Below are positions 11,565 to 61,256 of a stretch of DNA of 64,000 nt, piece by piece. Both the position numbers and the translations under genes were made by a program. Under the pieces are notes generated by a model that did no database searches, had not been told where the DNA came from, and saw only the letters and a list, made by a program, of their open reading frames with translations. The stretch lies in assembly GCA_964624785.1 (NCBI GenBank), contig CAZUXR010000002.1, positions 363 to 64,362 of the forward strand, written 5' to 3'. This DNA is from an uncultured Candidatus Saccharibacteria bacterium (GTDB lineage: Bacteria > Patescibacteriota > Saccharimonadia > Saccharimonadales > UBA10212). Numbering within the stretch: position 1 is the stretch's first letter; the number at the start of each line of letters is the position of its first letter.

Positions 11565-11971
11565 GGGGCTGAATTTTAAGCTCGACGTTGGACTTTAACA
11601 ACTTTGCATGGCAGGCCGGGTTGATCTGCACGTTAGCCGGATCAAAAAGATAGTTGCAAAAACTCTATCTCAGCGTGTAAACGCTGCTGCTGCGAACTTG
11701 TTTGCGGCATGTAGCTTTGCACCAACAGCGGCTTAAGTTATATAGGTTGCCGCTGCTCGATCGACACCAGATGAGTCGAAGTAGCGCCATATTATCTGGT
11801 TGCAGGTCTAGGAGTTTATCCGCTCTTGGGCTCTAAGATTTTAGGGTTGCGGAAATCACGCTTTTTGTTTGTTTAACAGCATGGTTACCAAAGATTTTTA
11901 AACAGACTAAGCCTGTAGTCATTAAGGAAGTTAACCGACGGACGCGGGGGAAGTATCCGCCAGCTCCACCA
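11565..11971 (+). ncRNA. ssrA: tmRNA (transfer-messenger RNA)
   Basis: The 5' end GGGGCUGAAUUUUAAGCUCGACG and 3' end GGACGCGGG...CCGCCAGCUCCACCA closely match the E. coli tmRNA acceptor and T-arm, including the G3:U pair. An internal tag frame starts at GCA 11656 (preceded by AAAAAGAUAGUU, as in E. coli AAAAAAUAGUC-GCA) and ends ...FAPTAA at TAA 11734-11736. The T-loop (GGAAGUA) is non-canonical. Confidence 0.8.
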
Positions 11972-26101: not shown

Positions 26102-26692
26102 ATGAAGATGGATCAGAGGGCCAAGGATAATACGGCAGCAGTTATAGATGGGATTTTAAAGTTTGTGGCTGTTGGTGGTTTTGTAACCACAGCCTTGGTG
26201 TTGCAAAATTCCGCTCAGATGTTCGATAAGCCGCTGGACAAAATGCTAAAGATTATGGATAAACGTCAGCAGGAGCGAGAGTTACGCCGGATTATTTATT
26301 ACATGAAGCAAAAAGGCCTTGTAAGATATCAAGCGGGTGATTACGAACACGGCATACAGCTTACCCAAAATGGCAAGCAGCGCTTAAAAAAAGCAAACTT
26401 CGTTGATTTACAAATCCCCAAGCCGTCAAAATGGGATGGCCAGTGGCGACTGGTGTTTTTTGATATACCCGAGACATCAAAGAAAAAGCGCGATTACCTG
26501 ACTTTCAAACTAAAAGAGTTAGGGTTTAAGATGTTGCAGCAAAGTATATGGGTGCATCCTTTTTCTTGTCGCCCCGAGATAGAAATGGTTGGCGAATTTC
26601 TGGGCGTTCGCCGCTATATCAGTTATGTCGAAATAAACCAAATAGACTCCGAGCACATTCTGCGAGAAAGATTTAAAAACCTAATAAACTAA
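26102..26692 (+). CDS. PaaX-family-like transcriptional regulator (wHTH plus PaaX C-terminal-like domain)
   Basis: KWDGQWRLVFFDIPE...KRDYLTFKLKELGFKMLQQSIWVHP parallels the PaaX motif WDGKW..L...K.L...GFG.L..S. Leaderless, with TATAAT 6 nt before the ATG. Confidence 0.55.
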   Translation: MKMDQRAKDNTAAVIDGILKFVAVGGFVTTALVLQNSAQMFDKPLDKMLKIMDKRQQERELRRIIYYMKQKGLVRYQAGDYEHGIQLTQNGKQRLKKANFVDLQIPKPSKWDGQWRLVFFDIPETSKKKRDYLTFKLKELGFKMLQQSIWVHPFSCRPEIEMVGEFLGVRRYISYVEINQIDSEHILRERFKNLIN

Positions 26693-26699
26693 GCACTCT

Positions 26700-27713
26700 C
26701 TAATTGATGATAATATAGTCAAAGATGTAGGTTGTGGCGGCGGTGGGCGGTGTGGCGGTGCAGATGCTCATGCTGCTATTTGTCCTATTGGTGTAATAGT
26801 TTAAAAGTCCAGCACTAGAATTGCTGGGGCTAACTACGGCGTGCGGCACACCGCTAAAAGCTCGCACGAAATTTATAGTCACAAAACACCCGGCTGGCGG
26901 GCTGCCACCGGTATTTATGGTTACAGTTCCGGCAGTGTCGCCGCCACTAACAGATACGGTGCCGCCGCCGCCAACCGCAGATCCTGCTGTGCGTCCAGGT
27001 GTGCCGCCGCCAGCAGTCAAGTGCCGGTTTATAACTAAGTCGCCCGAAAGTTGCAAGTTAGATACATTTAACACCCCGGCAGACAAAGACCCATTGATAG
27101 TCGCGGACCCAGCTACGGTGAGGTTCTTCTGCACATTTAGCTGCCCTTGCAAGTTGGTTGTGCCATTAACCGACAAGCTATCCGTAACTTGAATTTGCCC
27201 AAAACTGCTAGACCCACCAACCGTTATCGCTGGCAAAGACAAAGTTCCGCCAACTTTTATAGACCCGGCTACATCCAAATTATTACGCATCAATACCTGG
27301 CCTTCAAATACAGAGTTACCTTGTATGTCCAGTACGCCCTGTGCATCGCCCACAATCGTTGTGCTGCCTTTTAAAGCCGCTAGTTGCTTATCGGTCAGCG
27401 ACTGGGTTTTTTGCTGTTTAACTGTCGTGTCTTTTTTTGCGGCTTTGGACGCGGCATAAACCATCCCGGCAACGATTAATATTAGGACTACAAAAACCAC
27501 AAGGTAAAAGTTGCCAAAATTCTTGATACGCTTTAGCAAACCCGGGTGTTTTGGGGCGTCTTCTGTATTTTTGGTTTTGGGTTCTTTTTCTGCCTTGGGG
27601 TCGCTGGGCACGTTACTGTCTGGCTGACTTTCTTGCTCCCCACCGTTAGATGGCTCGACAATTGTCGAACTTTCTTCTAGCGACTGCTCTTCTAGCGACT
27701 TATTTTCTTCCAT
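26700..27713 (-). CDS. Hypothetical membrane-anchored protein with beta-solenoid-like repeats
   Basis: An acidic N-terminus, one TM, then repeated L.V.G...V.G.L.V units (LDIQGNSVFEGQVL..., LSVNGTTNLQGQLNVQKNLTVAGSATINGSL...). Confidence 0.5.
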   Translation of the reverse strand: MEENKSLEEQSLEESSTIVEPSNGGEQESQPDSNVPSDPKAEKEPKTKNTEDAPKHPGLLKRIKNFGNFYLVVFVVLILIVAGMVYAASKAAKKDTTVKQQKTQSLTDKQLAALKGSTTIVGDAQGVLDIQGNSVFEGQVLMRNNLDVAGSIKVGGTLSLPAITVGGSSSFGQIQVTDSLSVNGTTNLQGQLNVQKNLTVAGSATINGSLSAGVLNVSNLQLSGDLVINRHLTAGGGTPGRTAGSAVGGGGTVSVSGGDTAGTVTINTGGSPPAGCFVTINFVRAFSGVPHAVVSPSNSSAGLLNYYTNRTNSSMSICTATPPTAATTYIFDYIIIN

Positions 27714-27789
27714 AACTACTGCATAAATAATATACGAACCAAGCTATAAAGCGTAATCATTAATGACTATTATTGATATAATAACAAGC

Positions 27790-28527
27790 ATGAGGGGTTT
27801 ATTGGCGAGTTTGGCATTATTAGCAGTGGCGGTTTTTTTGCCAGCAGGCGAAGCCTACGCACAGTACACGTCCCCCAGCTACAAAGTCAACGAGGCATTT
27901 TTTGGAGTCGGCGGCGAACTAAGCGACGCTTCTGCCAACTACCAGGCAAAAATCGCCTTGGGCGAACTTGGCATAGATCATTCATCTAGCGCCAACTTCC
28001 AGGTTTATTCCGGATTCAACACCACTGACAGGCCCTTGCTAGAAGTTGCCGTAACCGGTGGCACCTTTGATTTTGGTCAGCTTAGCTCTACTACGGTGTC
28101 GGCAATAACTACTGTTTTTACAGTGCGGAACTACCTATCTAGCGGCTACACCGTGCGCTTAGGTGGCACCCCACCAAAGAACAGCGGCACAAGTTATACA
28201 CTAAGCAACATGAGCAGTTCTAGCGCCTCTGCCCCAGGCACGGAACAGTTTGGTGTTAACCTGGCAGCTAACACTCTGACTGGTCCGGGTACCTTTGGCG
28301 CCGTGCCCGCTCAGGTGCCGGATTCCACATTCGGTTTTGGTGTGGCAAATGCCGGGTACAATACCACCAACCTATTTAAATATGTAGAAAACGACCCCTT
28401 CGCCAGCAGCCCAAAAAGTAGCGGCACAACTCAGTACACCATGTCGGCAATAGCCAATATTAGCAAAACTACCCCGGGGGGCAGTTACGGAACGTCCCTA
28501 TTTGTTAACGTCCTCCCCACGTTTTAA
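27790..28527 (+). CDS. Secreted Ser/Thr/Gly-rich beta-rich protein (paralog family A-1)
   Basis: Sec signal peptide (MRGLLASLALLAVAVFLPAGEAYA). The C-terminal strand ends ...TSLFVNVLPTF. Paralogous to the 28951 and 30302 genes. Confidence 0.5.
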   Translation: MRGLLASLALLAVAVFLPAGEAYAQYTSPSYKVNEAFFGVGGELSDASANYQAKIALGELGIDHSSSANFQVYSGFNTTDRPLLEVAVTGGTFDFGQLSSTTVSAITTVFTVRNYLSSGYTVRLGGTPPKNSGTSYTLSNMSSSSASAPGTEQFGVNLAANTLTGPGTFGAVPAQVPDSTFGFGVANAGYNTTNLFKYVENDPFASSPKSSGTTQYTMSAIANISKTTPGGSYGTSLFVNVLPTF

Positions 28528-28604
28528 GTCCAGTTAATCCGAATTTCTAAATCCTAAACAAAACTTCAAATCATAAGTTTTAAAATCCAAACTTTTCCGA
28601 GCTA

Positions 28605-28774
28605 AGAGCTAATCCACATCTATCCGTTGATAGCGAATCTCAAGCAGCTGCCATGATTTGTCATTTGTTTTCTCGGCTTTTGGTCGTAGCCATAGCTACG
28701 AACCGAAAATGAAAAACAGATGGCAAGTGGCAGACCTTGGGATTCTAGCCGACAGATAGATGTGGATTAGCTCT
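28605..28774. repeat. 170-bp palindromic element with 20-bp perfect terminal inverted repeats
   Basis: AGAGCTAATCCACATCTATC (28605-24) and its exact reverse complement (28755-74). The arms are imperfectly palindromic throughout, with a central GGTCGTAGCCATAGCTACGAACC palindrome. Confidence 0.6.
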
Positions 28775-28950
28775 AAGGCTGTTTGAAAATTAGAATTTAT
28801 AGTTTGGATCCCGCCGAACCGTTTACAGTGAGCCTGTCGAACTGTGGATAACTTGCCTATAAAATTATTAGATTATGCTTGCGTTTAATATACATTTAAT
28901 GCTACGATCGGTTTGAGTAATAAAAATAAACGTTTTAAAGAGTAAAAAAT

Positions 28951-30261
28951 ATGAATAAAATTATTGATTTATCTAAGCGCGCTTCATCATTATTCGCAGC
29001 AATCCTGTTGGTGGTAGGCGTATCGATCCCTGTATTTGTGCCACAACAAGCCCACGCCGCCCAATTAACTTCGCGCAAATTGTCGCTTAGTTCTTCTGCG
29101 AATGGCAGCATAAGCACAGACGCCGGCGGTAATGCCGTCACGGCTGGAGCGGGCGGTAACGGTACTAAAGCCCAGCATGTAGTGACTTTTACTATGGCTT
29201 CCTCGGGCGCTACAGTTGGCTCGATAGTAATTATGTATTGTACTAGCCCGATAGCTCAAACTACTTGTACAACTCCTACTGGATTAAACGCCGCGAACCT
29301 GACTAGTGCTACGGTGGCCGGACTTACTGGGGCCGGCGGATTCGCTCTAGATACAACCACAGCTAACACCTCATTAGCGCCAGCGGCAATGGGTGTTTGT
29401 AACGGTGCTGGTACTACCAGAACTAACTGTGTAGCGGTAAAGCACGCGAGCGGCCAGGTTCAAACTGCTACACCAACAGCAACGATTACTTATGGTGGCG
29501 GATCAAGCAACTATATTACCAACCCAACCACAGATAACTACAGCTTCTATGCACGTATAGCAGTATTTTCCGACACAGCCTTCACTACCCAAGTTGACTA
29601 CGGCGGAGTAGCGGCTTCTACCGCTCAGCAGATCGACATTACGGCTAAGGTACAAGAAGTTTTAAACTTCTCTGTAGGTTCAACCGTTACTGCCCCCAGT
29701 ACGACTTGCGTACCATTTAGTGATACTGGTGCGCTAACACTTGGTGATGCAAATGGGGTATTGAGTACTAGTACCGCATTCGATAATCACTCATACTTTA
29801 GAGTCAATACCAACACTTTAAATGGTACGGTTGTGTATTATTCCGGCGATACGCTTAAGAGTGGCTCCAACTCTATAACTTCTGTCGGTCTTGGCGGCGG
29901 CGGCGGAGTTAACGGTGTAAGTAGCACGCCTGGTACTTCACAGTTTGGCTTGGCCCTTGACTCTAGCGACACACAGAGTGGCAGCGGCTACAGTTTTACT
30001 AATCTTGCAGCTAACGATGGAACCAACATAGCATCACACCTATTCAAGTATAGTGCTGGAAACGGAACAATAACCACCGCCGGTACAGCAAAATTCCAAT
30101 TTGATACTGCTAGCACTACCACTCCTAGGCCAATAGCATTTTCAACCGGGGGAATAACTTGTGACACCGGCTCAGTACGCTACTTGGGCAACATCAGCAC
30201 AGCAACCGTAGCCGGCATTTACACCACTACAATAACCTACATAGCCACCGGCACTTACTAG
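28951..30261 (+). CDS. Secreted Ser/Thr/Gly-rich beta-rich protein (paralog family A-2)
   Basis: A signal peptide, a 400-aa T/S/G/N-rich sequence with no Trp, and a C-terminal ...TTTITYIATGTY. Confidence 0.55.
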   Translation: MNKIIDLSKRASSLFAAILLVVGVSIPVFVPQQAHAAQLTSRKLSLSSSANGSISTDAGGNAVTAGAGGNGTKAQHVVTFTMASSGATVGSIVIMYCTSPIAQTTCTTPTGLNAANLTSATVAGLTGAGGFALDTTTANTSLAPAAMGVCNGAGTTRTNCVAVKHASGQVQTATPTATITYGGGSSNYITNPTTDNYSFYARIAVFSDTAFTTQVDYGGVAASTAQQIDITAKVQEVLNFSVGSTVTAPSTTCVPFSDTGALTLGDANGVLSTSTAFDNHSYFRVNTNTLNGTVVYYSGDTLKSGSNSITSVGLGGGGGVNGVSSTPGTSQFGLALDSSDTQSGSGYSFTNLAANDGTNIASHLFKYSAGNGTITTAGTAKFQFDTASTTTPRPIAFSTGGITCDTGSVRYLGNISTATVAGIYTTTITYIATGTY

Positions 30262-30301
30262 AGTCGTATCAACAAATCCTGTTTTCCGTTATGCTTATTG
30301 T

Positions 30302-31321
30302 ATGAGTTTAAAGTTAACATTGCCAATTGTCTTATTTGTAGCTTGGTTATGTTTGAGCGCGCAATCTGTAGTTAGTGCGGTGTATTTGCCGCAGCGTAGT
30401 TTGGATATTAGGAGTTCTACGGCCAGTGTTACTACCCAGCATACTGTAAGCTTTACTTTTCCGGGCAGTGCCAGCGTGGGGTCAATTAAGTTCGAATATT
30501 GCGACAGCCCACTAGAGGTGCTGTCCTGTGTTGCTCCGCCGGGCGTGGACGCTGCCGCAGCCGTATTGACTGCCCAGTCTGGCGAAACGGGCTTTAGTGT
30601 ATTATCTCAAACATCAAACGAAGTCGTGCTAACCCGCGTGCCAGCTGCCACGGGGTCTCAACTTAATTCTTACACCTTAAACGGCGTAAAAAACCCCAGC
30701 AATATAGGATCGTTTTATTTGCGCATAAGTTCTTATGCCAGCATCAACGCCACCGGACCCAGCATAGACTTTGGCGGTACCGTTGGCGCTATAACCCAGG
30801 GCATTAGCATTAATACAGAGGTCCCGCCTATTCTGGAATTTTGCGCAGCCGTGAGCATAACCTCTACTTGCGCGTCGGCCAGCGGCAATTTTGTAAATTT
30901 GGGCACGTTTAGTTCTAATTCTACGGCTACTGGCACAACTCAATTTTTAGTTGGCACGAACGCCAACTTTGGTTACGTGGTAACGCTTAATGGTAACACT
31001 TTAACTTCTGGTAACGATGTTATTGCGGCACTTAGCACGTCTGGCTCAAGCCAAAAAGGTCAATCGCAATTTGGTATGAATTTGCGGGCAAATTCTAATC
31101 CGCCGGTGGGTTCTGACCCGGCTGGCGGCAGCGGCAGCCCCACCGCAAATTACGGTACGCCGAACATCTTTAGATTTAATAACGGAGAAATCGTGGCTAG
31201 CAATTCTACCGTGTCGGATATTCAAATATATACGGCAAGCTATATTGTGAATATAGGCGGCGGCCAAGCGCCCGGAGTATATAACACTACACTAACCTAT
31301 GTAGCAACAGCCACTTTTTAG
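30302..31321 (+). CDS. Secreted Ser/Thr/Gly-rich beta-rich protein (paralog family A-3)
   Basis: A signal peptide, shared internal motifs (QFG.NL.AN, NTT.TY.AT.TF), and a C-terminal ...TTLTYVATATF. Confidence 0.55.
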   Translation: MSLKLTLPIVLFVAWLCLSAQSVVSAVYLPQRSLDIRSSTASVTTQHTVSFTFPGSASVGSIKFEYCDSPLEVLSCVAPPGVDAAAAVLTAQSGETGFSVLSQTSNEVVLTRVPAATGSQLNSYTLNGVKNPSNIGSFYLRISSYASINATGPSIDFGGTVGAITQGISINTEVPPILEFCAAVSITSTCASASGNFVNLGTFSSNSTATGTTQFLVGTNANFGYVVTLNGNTLTSGNDVIAALSTSGSSQKGQSQFGMNLRANSNPPVGSDPAGGSGSPTANYGTPNIFRFNNGEIVASNSTVSDIQIYTASYIVNIGGGQAPGVYNTTLTYVATATF

Positions 31322-31323
31322 AC

Positions 31324-31445
31324 AGAAACTACGCATTTGGCACATTTTGGCCCAAAAACTGCGCTCCGCGCTCACCGTACTATTTAGTACGATTCGCTTA
31401 CGGTGCTCTTTTTTGAACCAAACTGCACTCAAATGCGTAGTTTCT
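31324..31445. repeat. MITE-like element, short copy (16-bp perfect TIRs AGAAACTACGCATTTG)
   Basis: The termini are inverted repeats. Its internal sequence is shared with the 59053-59337 copy (GGCACATTTTG..AAAACTGCG..CGTACTATTTAGTACG..TTTTGAACCAAACTGCACTCAA). Confidence 0.65.
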
Positions 31446-31553
31446 CGGTTGCTATAGTTATGTTTTTTCATGCATCGGCCCAAATCTGCACATACAGAAC
31501 AAGTAATTCTTGTGTTAGAATGGGTAGTAATTATGTTTAAACGAGGGAGTTCT

Positions 31554-32564
31554 ATGAAATTTAGATTGGTACGAATTGTTGTTCCTGTTTTATTATTCAC
31601 AGTACTTTTAGTGCACGATCTGCCGGCCGCTGCTCAGTCCAACGGCCTGGGGATTACGCCAAAACTAAGCTACACAGTTAACGCTGGGGAACAGCGCAGC
31701 GACACTCTGTATGTAAATAACCTTAGTACTTCGCAAGTTCTTAACCTTAAACTCAAAGTTATAGACTTTAAGCCGCAAGACGAAACAGGCGCTCCAAAAC
31801 TTTTGCAAGCTAGTGATGAACCGCTTACTCCGTGGTCGCTAAAACCATACATGACCCTTCCGGACAGAGTAACTATCGAACCCGGTAAATCCAAACTTAT
31901 ACCATTTACGATTAAAATTCCAAAAAGCGTAGGGGCAGGCAGCTACTACAGCGCCGTTCAGTACACCGCTGTGAGCGATTTTGACCAAGAAAAGGTGAAC
32001 GTTGCCGCTAGCAGTGCTTCGCTGATATTCGTAACAGTTCCTGGTGACGCTTCTGAGCTGCTTAACCTGGTCCAGTTCGGGCCATATGAGGGCGGTAAGT
32101 TCCAGACTATGTTTGCATCTAAACCCCCGGCCAGCTTTGCCTACCGAATTAAAAACAGCGGCAATATTAGCGAAAGTCCTAGCGGCAGCATTGTGGTCAA
32201 AAACTTTTTTGGCCATGTGGTGCGCAGTATAGACAACGCCAACCCGCTAGGCCAACTGGTTATTATCGGCCAAACCCGCCGGTTTGAAGTCTGCGCTCCA
32301 AAAAGCGACAAGCAAGAAGACCTAGGCAAGCCATCTAACTGCAAGCCGCTAAAACTTATGCCCGGCAGATACACCGCTCAGATAGAACTGCTATACGGTC
32401 AAAACGGCAAAACTAACCGCCAAATTGGCGCTACAAGTACATTTTGGTATTTGCCAATTTGGTTTGTGATCCTGGCGCTGATTGTGTTGACTGCTATAGT
32501 CTACGGTGGTTGGCGCTTGTACAAAAAGCTCGTTGCTCCGCGCCACCGTCGCACCAAACGATAA
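31554..32564 (+). CDS. C-terminally membrane-anchored two-domain surface protein (DUF916/DUF3324-like architecture)
   Basis: ATG 31554 follows GAGGGAG. A signal peptide is followed by two Ig-like beta domains, a C-terminal TM (WYLPIWFVILALIVLTAIVYGGW) and a basic tail (RLYKKLVAPRHRRTKR). Confidence 0.5.
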   Translation: MKFRLVRIVVPVLLFTVLLVHDLPAAAQSNGLGITPKLSYTVNAGEQRSDTLYVNNLSTSQVLNLKLKVIDFKPQDETGAPKLLQASDEPLTPWSLKPYMTLPDRVTIEPGKSKLIPFTIKIPKSVGAGSYYSAVQYTAVSDFDQEKVNVAASSASLIFVTVPGDASELLNLVQFGPYEGGKFQTMFASKPPASFAYRIKNSGNISESPSGSIVVKNFFGHVVRSIDNANPLGQLVIIGQTRRFEVCAPKSDKQEDLGKPSNCKPLKLMPGRYTAQIELLYGQNGKTNRQIGATSTFWYLPIWFVILALIVLTAIVYGGWRLYKKLVAPRHRRTKR

Positions 32565-32608
32565 GCACTTAACTTGTAAGCCCGGTTAATCTGTATTATG
32601 GTTATGTT

Positions 32609-33496
32609 ATGACTTTTAAGCTAAAGCTAGCGGTTGTTTTTGCGCTGAGTATTTTGGGGGTTGGCACGAGCATTTCCGTGGTGCAAGCCGCCGCACCGCC
32701 AGCGCCCAACCCACAAGCAGGATCGTTAGGTCTGGAGGGCCAAGTTGGCGGTGGTCCGCCTACAACACCCGCCACTATTACGGTTCCCGGTAATGGCCAG
32801 GTGTTTAACAGTGTGCCTATAACTGTTTCGGGCATTTGTACTAAAGGGCTACTGGTGGAGGTTTTTAGTAACGGCGTCTTTGTGGGATCGGCGCAGTGTA
32901 GCAGTGGCAGCTTTTCATTACTTATCGATCTATTTAACGGCCAAAATGATTTAGTTGTCCGTCAGTACGATGCGCTTAATCAATCTAGCCCAGATTCTAA
33001 CACCGTGAGCGTAACTTACAATAGCCCTTCGCCTTCCGGAGTTTCGCGCCCAACGCTTACGACCGCCTATGCCAAGCGTGGAGCCGATCCTAAGACCTCG
33101 TTATCGTGGCCAATGACAATAAGTGGTGGCAGCGGCCCATACGCCATTAGTATTGACTGGGGCGACAAAACTCAACTGGATCTGCTTAGCCGCAAAAGTG
33201 CAGGGGGATTTAGTATAGAACACACTTACAATCAGTCGGGTATTTTTAATGTAACGGTCAAAGCTGTAGATTCTAACGGAGCGGCAGCGTTTTTGCAGCT
33301 AGTAGCTATTGCTAACGGGCCGATTCAGCAAGGTGGGGTTAATAGTAGTTCTGCTCAACCCAAAGCTGAGCGCGTGTTTGTTTGGTGGCCGGTGGCATTA
33401 ACTTTTTGTCTAACCTTCGTAGCTTTTTGGCTTGGTAAAAAGCACCAGCTAGAAACAATTCGCAGTCGTTTGCGCCGCGGCGAGCGCCCCATCTAA
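32609..33496 (+). CDS. Membrane-anchored surface protein with PKD-like domain
   Basis: A signal peptide, Ig-like segments, a PKD-like motif (ISIDWGDKT...HTYNQSGIFNVTVKAVDSNG), and a C-terminal TM plus basic tail. Confidence 0.55.
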   Translation: MTFKLKLAVVFALSILGVGTSISVVQAAAPPAPNPQAGSLGLEGQVGGGPPTTPATITVPGNGQVFNSVPITVSGICTKGLLVEVFSNGVFVGSAQCSSGSFSLLIDLFNGQNDLVVRQYDALNQSSPDSNTVSVTYNSPSPSGVSRPTLTTAYAKRGADPKTSLSWPMTISGGSGPYAISIDWGDKTQLDLLSRKSAGGFSIEHTYNQSGIFNVTVKAVDSNGAAAFLQLVAIANGPIQQGGVNSSSAQPKAERVFVWWPVALTFCLTFVAFWLGKKHQLETIRSRLRRGERPI

Positions 33497-58838: not shown

Positions 58839-59050
58839 CAATCTGGAACTATATAACAATTGTGAGCATGGCACTGCTGACTATTTTAATTTTGATTCAA
58901 ACTCGCGGGGCGAGCCTGGGCGCGGGGCTTGGCGGCGGCGGAGAAGTTCATACGGAGCGCCGCGGATCAGATAAAAGCATACATCAGCTAACTATAATTT
59001 TAGTTTTCATTTTTTGTGCAAGTATAATCATCAACATCGTAGCCAAATAG
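58835..59050 (+). CDS. secG: Preprotein translocase subunit SecG
   Basis: 71 aa. TM1-LLTILILIQTRGASLGAGLGGGGEV-...-TM2 is the SecG hallmark (Q..GKGxGLGxxFGGG). Confidence 0.7.
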   Translation: MTIWNYITIVSMALLTILILIQTRGASLGAGLGGGGEVHTERRGSDKSIHQLTIILVFIFCASIIINIVAK

Positions 59051-59052
59051 AA

Positions 59053-59337
59053 GGAGCTGCGCACTTGGCACATTTTGTCCTAAAATCTGCGATCCGCATT
59101 CAACGTACTTATGAGTACGCCTCATTTGCGGTTCTCGATTTTATAGCAACCCCAAAACAAAACTCGCATTTTGAACCGCGCCTCGCCAGCCAAAAATCGT
59201 CATTCCTCGTTCAACGTATCTACAGATATGCCTCTCTTGGAAATAACGATTTTTGGCTCAGACGATCCATCATTTCAAATTTACAAGTTTTGTCTTGGGA
59301 TTGCTATAGAACAAACTGCACTCAAGTGCGCAGCTCC
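59053..59337. repeat. MITE-like element, long copy (15-bp perfect TIRs GGAGCTGCGCACTTG)
   Basis: The same family as 31324-31445, with ~140 extra internal bp and internal duplicated modules (CAACGTACTTATGAGTACGCCTCATTTGCGG / CAACGTATCTACAGATATGCCTCTCTTGG). Confidence 0.65.
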
Positions 59338-61169: not shown

Positions 61170-61256
61170 TGGTGGGGATGAGAGGACTTGAACCTCCACG
61201 AACAAATGTTCACTACGTCCTGAACGTAGCGCGTCTACCAATTCCGCCACATCCCC
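61170..61256 (-). tRNA. tRNA-Leu (anticodon CAG)
   Basis: Reverse complement: GGGGAUG-UG-GCGG-AAUUGGUAGA-CGCG-CUACG-UUCAGGA-CGUAG-UGAACAUUUGUUCGU-GGAGG-UUCAAGU-CCUCU-CAUCCCC-A-CCA. It has a class II long variable arm, is nearly identical in its arms to E. coli tRNA-Leu(CAG), and encodes its CCA. Confidence 0.9.

Follow-up and report, generated by a model that had tools for sequence, protein, structure and literature searches.

Five consecutive + strand genes in a 64,000-nucleotide stretch of DNA from an uncultured Candidatus Saccharibacteria bacterium (contig CAZUXR010000002.1; the whole stretch is called the window hereafter) very probably constitute a minimal Pam pilus operon of a bacterium of the Saccharimonadales, within the candidate phyla radiation (CPR, or Patescibacteria). 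The operon is a real, but additional, minimal member of a system that was described in 2026. An earlier note on this DNA, made from the sequence alone, had suggested a possible surface fibre or adhesion system, of interest if the organism were an epibiont. The core of that reading was right, the bacterium being a Saccharimonadales relative of the epibiotic type, but the fibre system is not novel, since the Pam pilus is already covered by a preprint (bioRxiv 10.64898/2026.03.03.709456) and by models in NCBIfam release 20. In a cultured parasitic CPR bacterium, Pam pili rank with the most abundant proteins, and the first contact with the host cell is attributed to them as a likely role; recognition of the operon in more genomes shows which lineages can use the Pam route. 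The fibre encoded in the window probably mediates contact with a host bacterium.

Match to the Pam pilus operon

The identification was made with the curated models of NCBIfam release 20, which are derived from the Pam system of the preprint. Gene 1, pamT (27790-28527; 245 amino acids, aa), encodes a single-domain tip pilin that scored 284.6 bits against NF058579 (CPR_pilus_PamT, cut-off 240), with model positions 5-241 of 241 aligned, and 137 bits against NF058581 (CPR_Pam_pilin_C, cut-off 55). The latter cut-off was also exceeded by the products of gene 2 (28951-30261, 436 aa; 82.7 bits), a large, PamA-like two-domain pilin, and gene 3 (30302-31321, 339 aa; 162.6 bits), a smaller, PamE-like one. 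Gene 5, pamR (32609-33496), encodes an RbmA-like protein, proposed as the pilus terminator and anchor, and scored 375.1 bits against NF058578 (CPR_pilus_PamR, cut-off 300). Gene 4 (31554-32564, 336 aa) lies just before it and encodes a membrane-anchored, PamD-like pilus chaperone. The three pilins are 22-29% identical overall, and their C-terminal domains were matched pairwise by hhalign at 98.5-99.9%; with the common Pam_pilin_C domain, this confirms the paralogy that had been proposed for the three secreted proteins.

The six open reading frames (ORFs) that the earlier note had listed for this region, namely these five and a divergent one, were all present at its coordinates in the ORF listing. 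The start of pamT is most likely 27790, as also given there, which is Met10 of an ORF opening at 27763; homologues of the protein span 243-250 aa. For gene 4, whose ORF opens at 31470, the true start is 31554 (Met29 of the ORF), with GAGGGAG just upstream; the same start was given by an independent gene call on a public contig of identical sequence. A hydrophobic N-terminal segment and an AXA-type site (AYA/Q, AHA/A, VSA/V, AAA/Q, and VQA/A) can be read from the sequence of all five + strand products, consistent with the predicted Sec-type signal peptides. Also found as previously described were a C-terminal hydrophobic helix followed by a basic tail on the products of genes 4 and 5, and the aromatic-ended C-terminal strands TLTYVATATF, TITYIATGTY, and LFVNVLPTF. 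For gene 5, to which a PKD-like domain had been ascribed, the Pfam PKD match (22.9 bits) was just below threshold and Glucodextran_B was above its cut-off (31 bits).

Sortase-dependent and type IV pili are both known in monoderm bacteria and Saccharibacteria. It is scarcely credible that this cluster encodes one of them: no LPXTG motif is present in the five + strand proteins, the predicted signal peptides resemble the ordinary Sec type and not the prepilin type, and the family matches of the cluster proteins include neither a sortase nor a prepilin peptidase nor an assembly ATPase. Composition offers another explanation. The three pilins are, as had been stated, rich in Ser/Thr/Gly/Asn (41-46%) and practically devoid of Trp (counts of 0, 0, and 1, the sole residue being in the signal peptide of the 339-aa protein). 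Such low-complexity-like proteins, with no Pfam family of their own, might be surface layer or wall-associated proteins unrelated to pili, with scores against the Pam models that reflect mere shared composition. We consider this very improbable, as the scores exceed the curated cut-offs by a wide margin, with matches that run over the whole length of the models, and as the proteins show position-specific conserved motifs, paired cysteines, and confident structure models with defined immunoglobulin (Ig)-like domains.

The gene content can be compared with that of Ca. Mycosynbacter amalyticus, whose Pam filaments were solved by cryo-electron microscopy (cryo-EM) at 2.8 and 3.6 Å as polymers of PamA and PamB, in which each C-terminal domain is completed, by donor-strand exchange, with the inter-domain linker strand of an adjacent subunit. 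In the same operon, PamE is a third pilin, PamT is a domain-only tip, PamC and PamD are PapD/FimC-like chaperones that end in a membrane helix, and PamR is an RbmA-like, membrane-anchored protein proposed as the terminator; conserved next to the operon are the atp genes and a tail fibre-like gene (bioRxiv 10.64898/2026.03.03.709456). The Pam identity of the window genes is supported by this set, which has exactly the components seen here, with its anchored chaperones, RbmA-like PamR, and atp and tail fibre-like neighbours. Shared with Mycosynbacter are PamT, pilins of two domains that end in the Pam C-terminal domain, a chaperone anchored by a C-terminal membrane helix, and PamR, in the order T, A, E, D, R, as well as the conserved linker, the paired cysteines, and the adjoining atp operon and beta-helix ("tail fibre-like") gene. 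The window differs in that the module of PamB pilin and PamC chaperone after pamR is absent and in that two long hairpin inserts enlarge two of the spacers. Its PamA-like pilin is also shorter (436 aa) than the second-position pilin of extended loci such as L054 and L075 (534-555 aa). The 436-aa protein scored 98-437 bits against the second-position pilins of related loci and only 27-38 bits against the sixth-position ones.

Related loci were found by scanning species-representative genomes; 122 were found and 80 were kept and annotated with the window proteins, nearly all of them labelled Saccharibacteria or Saccharimonadales. The recurring order is atpA, atpG, atpD, atpC, the divergent beta-helix gene, pamT, a large pilin (384-722 aa), a pilin of ~355 aa, the chaperone, pamR, an optional pilin and second chaperone, mnmA, and alaS, which agrees with the preprint accession order T, A, E, D, R, B, C. 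The cluster had been supposed to be accessory, but it is a conserved one, since all 80 loci keep this order, with the atp operon on one side and mnmA/alaS on the other. The five-gene form of the window was present in 31 of 76 scorable loci and the extended form in 41, and 4 could not be scored. The PamB/PamC module is therefore optional and not a defining part, and the second pilin-chaperone pair is dispensable, leaving a core machinery with one chaperone.

Several points weigh against the identification. Gene 4 has no curated name, since NCBIfam holds no chaperone model. The names PamA, PamE, and PamD are applied by position, size, and preprint accession order and not by direct comparison with the Mycosynbacter proteins, as that genome lies outside the 80 loci, so orthology to the named proteins is putative. 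Filament formation, the order of subunits, and the roles of PamT and PamR would likewise be carried over from orthology and from AlphaFold complexes computed by others. Finally, lacking the PamB/PamC module, a fibre made here must differ from the two-part fibre of Mycosynbacter.

Subunit architecture and proposed assembly

Both large pilins consist of two domains joined by a linker. In the 436-aa protein, an N-terminal beta-sandwich is followed by a linker at residues 234-242 (VQEVLNFSV) and by the C-terminal pilin domain. The 339-aa protein, for which 438 homologues were found, has an N-terminal domain at 33-164, a linker at ~171-183 that includes the conserved segment EVPPILEFC (173-181), and a C-terminal domain at 209-337; its AlphaFold2 (AF2) model, with a predicted local distance difference test score (pLDDT) of 86, shows two beta domains connected by the linker. 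Four Cys residues (C67, C76, C181, and C190) are invariant in the mature protein, and the C-terminal strand is among the most conserved segments of the family, with an invariant final residue. Across both two-domain pilin families, the top conserved segments are the linker, the QFGxNL motif, and the C-terminal strand, as is also the case for the Mycosynbacter pilins (bioRxiv 10.64898/2026.03.03.709456). The linker, for which a donor role is predicted from orthology, is thus within the three most conserved segments in each family.

Fold comparison of the pilin model returned two-domain adhesins, among them FimH, FocH, PapG, CfaE, and the MSCRAMMs. Sequence searches against the PDB with the two large pilins and with a PamE-family profile gave only antibody light chains (E > 0.1). 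PamT lacks a separate N-terminal sandwich domain and consists of the C-terminal pilin domain alone. PamR has two domains of the Ig/fibronectin type III (FnIII) type, a hydrophobic helix at 255-276, and a basic tail, and its mature form begins with a conserved extension, PNPxxGSxGxEG, ahead of the first domain. Tandem FnIII/Ig-type domains are also found in RbmA of Vibrio cholerae, chains of which also turned up when the fold of the two-domain chaperone model was compared with known structures; RbmA is a secreted matrix protein, whereas PamR is anchored in the membrane and bears the conserved N-terminal extension.

From these features, the pilin subunits are incomplete Ig-like proteins that would be expected to assemble through strand complementation. 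The published Pam model was adopted for the window on account of the conserved linker, QFGxNL motif, and C-terminal strand, the architecture of PamT, and the extension of PamR. These features are present at the locus itself, and the strand exchanges described below are proposed by analogy with the relatives. All five products would leave the cytoplasm through Sec, as their signal peptides suggest. The chaperone would be held at the cytoplasmic membrane by its C-terminal helix and, judging from its fold and its homology to proteins of the WxLIP and PapD types, would lend a beta-strand to the incomplete Ig-like C-terminal domain of a pilin; the best candidate for the lent strand begins at the invariant GAGSYYSA motif. 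Donor-strand exchange would come next, with the linker strand of an incoming pilin filling the groove of its neighbour, a step seen by cryo-EM for the Mycosynbacter orthologues and proposed here from orthology and conservation. PamT, having an acceptor domain only, would cap the distal tip of a shaft built of the 436-aa PamA-like and 339-aa PamE-like pilins. PamR, which is anchored in the membrane and has an N-terminal extension of its own, would end growth and fix the fibre to the cell. The C-terminal strands had earlier been likened to donor strands or beta-signals of fibre subunits; strand complementation is indeed expected, but the strand donated in the orthologous cryo-EM structures is the inter-domain linker.

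The proposed assembly resembles that of chaperone-usher pili (Pap/Fim, CFA/I, and Csu), which are also built of incomplete Ig-like subunits completed by a two-domain chaperone and then by a neighbour, have a domain-only or adhesin tip subunit, and need no ATP outside the cell. The chaperone fold, as in CfaA, CupB2, CsuC, FaeE, and DraB, is shared as well. In contrast to those pili, the Pam system has no outer membrane and no usher, and its chaperone is tethered to the membrane. The Pam donor strand is an internal linker, whereas that of chaperone-usher subunits is an N-terminal extension; in addition, every Pam shaft subunit carries an extra N-terminal domain, and the fibre is extended and not coiled. 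The cluster encodes neither an usher nor an ATPase, and none of its genes matched an usher family. The likeness is at the level of the fold only, as no PapD-family sequence match was obtained in Pfam scans of the cluster and of the families. One PamE-family member had a sub-threshold match to Pfam Fimbrial (E 0.054).

Relation to WxL and WxLIP proteins

The product of gene 4 has a signal peptide, two Ig-like domains, a membrane helix at 302-327, and a basic tail, and its AF2 model (pLDDT 86.4) shows two beta-sandwich domains and the helix. The best Foldseek matches in the PDB were the Enterococcus faecium WxLIP structures 9i1y and 9i25 (E 1.5e-9), which represent the protein free and bound to a long WxL protein, followed by CfaA, CupB2, CsuC, FaeE, and DraB. 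The 353 homologues are all unnamed and come mainly from Saccharimonadales. Their most conserved motif, GAGSYYSA[IV] (residues 127-135), lies where the last strand of domain 1 begins. It is at this same place, the last strand of domain 1, that chaperones of the PapD type carry their donor strand.

In Pfam, the window chaperone scored 18.9 bits against DUF916 (PF06030), below the cut-off of 27.3; the same model matched 28 of 35 close and 25 of 42 distant members of the chaperone family, with a best E of 3.8e-9, and some members carry an NCBI DUF916 annotation. The family is large, with 5580 cluster representatives at E <= 0.001. A first chaperone profile (A1) gave no match to PDB sequences, and with a broader one (A4) the best PDB sequence match was EfmWxLIP1 (E 0.007). 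For a direct comparison, twelve Firmicute WxL loci from plasmids were used, with signal peptides and membrane helices trimmed. Over 214 columns, Pam chaperones were aligned by hhalign to the WxLIP ectodomains at 97.5% (E 5e-12). When just the N-terminal domain was used, the value was 97.6% (E 3e-12; reversed controls 0.2%), and with just the second domain it was 14%, at the expected position; reversed-template controls did not exceed 0.4%. By sequence comparison, there is thus a solid case that the Pam chaperone family is homologous to Firmicute WxLIP and belongs to the DUF916/WxLIP lineage. The parallel to WxL/DUF916/DUF3324 loci that the earlier note had drawn holds for this protein; DUF3324 was not matched by Pfam in any of the 77 chaperone-family members scanned.

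The WxL side of the parallel is weaker. The Pfam WxL model matched neither the pilins nor the 41 PamE-family members scanned, PDB searches with the pilins did not return a WxL chain, and, as had been pointed out, the pilins have no W-x-L motif, Tyr occupying both motif positions. An alignment of 78 Pam C-terminal domains was nevertheless matched to one of 21 WxL domains by hhalign at 46% (E 2e-4, score 33.4), with a reversed control of 0.1% and a block-shuffle null of 11.7 +/- 2.6 (maximum 19.1, n = 80). This value required the broader Firmicute set, as a narrow WxL alignment gave merely 6-10%. A relaxed alignment was colinear over 131 columns, pairing GYxV with the first GWTL, QFGxNL with GxxLxF, and aGiYTTTiTYia with YtTTiTWnL. 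The second Trp is also missing from the proteins in the WxL position of some Bacillus and Listeria plasmids, which have LTYSIV and VTVAVV; those of Listeria are annotated just as hypothetical. Taken together, the alignments are only suggestive of homology between the pilin C-terminal domain and the WxL domain.

Architecture provides further points of comparison with the WxL/WxLIP clusters (PMC10599100). Both systems include a membrane-anchored protein of two Ig domains with a C-terminal helix, a basic tail, and the homologous N-terminal domain (97.6%); a strand of the anchored protein is predicted to enter the partner. In the published analysis of WxLIP, a DUF916 hairpin is predicted to insert into the WxL domain. 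Both also have a small domain-only protein, larger proteins with the same domain at their C terminus, and the C-terminal motif YxTT[IL]T[WY]. The Pam system differs in having Tyr and not Trp at both motif positions, in the lack of detectable Pfam WxL and DUF3324 matches, and in the absence of the small LPXTG protein. A further difference is that Pam subunits carry a donor linker and form polymers, while no filament is known for WxL proteins.

These likenesses raise the alternative that the cluster encodes a non-filamentous surface complex of the WxL type, in which a DUF916-like protein anchors secreted, beta-rich proteins that do not polymerise, an arrangement that has been proposed for the WxL/WxLIP clusters of Firmicutes. 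The homology of the chaperone to WxLIP, the weak but colinear alignment of the pilin and WxL domains, and the common set of a small domain-only protein, large proteins, and an anchored two-Ig protein would all fit it. Such a complex is nonetheless improbable, given that the Mycosynbacter orthologues form filaments (resolved at 2.8 and 3.6 Å), that the linker donated in those filaments is among the most conserved segments here, and that the cut-offs of the curated Pam models were passed while those of Pfam WxL and DUF3324 were not.

Alongside the assignment of the window genes to a Pam operon, we tentatively suggest, giving it slightly less than an even chance, that a single ancient system of monoderms has given rise to two branches, namely the Pam pili in CPR bacteria and the Firmicute WxL/WxLIP clusters. 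In each of them, a tethered chaperone of two Ig domains may complete an unfinished beta-domain, which stands alone in a small protein and C-terminally in larger ones. The C-terminal domain of the Pam pilins may then be a WxL domain whose two Trp residues have given way to Tyr (GYxV against GWTL, and TTLTYxA against TTITWNL), WxLIP may act as a chaperone, and the Firmicute WxL proteins may exchange strands or form short fibres. If this is true, chaperone-assisted strand complementation would be a testable mechanism for the WxL/DUF916 loci that have long been a puzzle in enterococci, lactobacilli, Listeria, and Bacillus plasmids, and the origin of the CPR pilus would lie outside the CPR. In the literature searched, no link between WxL and chaperone-usher systems was found beyond incidental co-mention in two general reviews, and WxL/DUF916/DUF3324 clusters are not mentioned in the Pam preprint (bioRxiv 10.64898/2026.03.03.709456). 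What is added here is the placement of the Pam chaperone in the WxLIP lineage and, tentatively, the equivalence of the pilin C-terminal and WxL domains.

Two observations were made on plasmids. In pXO1-type Bacillus plasmids, a trio of small WxL, WxLIP, and large WxL genes lies inside the conjugation region, immediately after a CpaF/VirB11-type ATPase gene (L086, 4217-5978, in B. anthracis pXO1; L090, 4241-7960, in B. mycoides p226), which hints at a role in mating contact; the strand exchange or short fibres suggested above for WxL proteins could extend to these copies. Separately, an unannotated stretch of CP069367.1 (102183-102591), labelled as a Klebsiella pneumoniae plasmid, shares 74% identity with E. 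faecium WxLIP1. A surface protein of Gram-positive bacteria is not expected in such a host, and contamination or misassignment may explain the match.

Neighbouring genes, hairpins and spacers

In the window, the cluster is preceded by atpG, atpD, atpC, and a small PaaX/Cas2-like gene and followed by mnmA, which starts 48 nucleotides (nt) after pamR, and alaS. The beta-helix gene (26700-27713, - strand, 337 aa) is divergent from pamT, and this arrangement was kept in 53 of 55 scorable loci. Its product has an acidic N-terminal tail, one membrane helix (~62-93), a beta-helix, and a small C-terminal domain, and it scored 26.8 bits against Pfam Bactofilin, just below the cut-off of 27.9. If the acidic tail is cytoplasmic, the bactofilin-like domain would be outside the cell, unlike that of bactofilins. 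A search of PHROGs gave only weak matches of unknown function. The protein is probably the "tail fibre-like protein" of the Pam preprint; since the entire neighbourhood is syntenic, adjacency alone does not prove a role in the pilus for either the beta-helix gene or the atp genes.

The PaaX/Cas2-like gene (26102-26692), between atpC and the beta-helix gene, encodes a protein of 196 aa with a PaaX_M/Cas2-like match (Pfam, 76 bits) and an N-terminal hydrophobic segment. The gene has moved, because in the closest related locus (L002) its homologue is downstream of alaS on the other strand. The operon itself is modular beyond the minimal and extended forms: two large PamA-like pilin genes stand in tandem in L020, L029, and L048, and the chaperone precedes the pilins in L017 and L038. 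Elsewhere in the window are a tmRNA gene (11565-11971, 87.6 bits) and one tRNA gene (61173-61256), the sole Rfam matches at the gathering threshold.

Two hairpins enlarge spacers within the operon. Hairpin 1 (28600-28780) is a near-perfect structure of 180 nt between pamT and the 436-aa pilin gene, with a minimum free energy (MFE) of -100.2 kcal/mol (z -11.8) and arms of 26 nt that are 92% complementary and unique in the window. Hairpin 2 (31321-31448; 125 nt, MFE -48.6 kcal/mol, z -6.2) is directly 3' of the stop codon of the 339-aa pilin gene and has perfectly complementary arms of 16 nt; it is one of a small family of intergenic repeats, and a second, diverged copy, 76% identical over 96 nt, lies near 59050-59140. 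The earlier note had reported repeat elements at 28605 and 31324 bracketing the locus. The elements are real, but they are two unrelated hairpins that flank genes 2 and 3. One public short-read assembly contig starts exactly at hairpin 2 (31322).

The spacer between pamT and the next pilin gene is 423 nt here and ~100-145 nt (range 14-151) and weakly structured in most related loci, and that between the second pilin gene and the chaperone gene is 232 nt compared with ~35-60 nt in most of them. Comparable structured inserts occur at other positions in L055, L058, and L036. The hairpins look like sporadic palindromic intergenic elements and not like a conserved part of the operon, and an effect on the stability of the pilin mRNA is possible. 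A role as invertible promoter switches was ruled out, as the whole element is self-complementary and not its ends alone, and so was one as conserved operon regulators, as the related loci lack them at these positions. Neither hairpin could be assigned to an Rfam family (the top hit, to a plant microRNA at E 0.07, was spurious), and promoter and terminator scans performed no better than on shuffled sequence. In many loci of the extended type, the PamA-like gene is followed by a spacer of ~100-125 nt with a strong fold of ~-0.3 kcal/mol per nt, for example at 8677-8795 of L054 and in L061; the same spacer is only 40 nt in the window. Where present, this folded spacer may be an attenuator that sets the ratio of pilin to chaperone.

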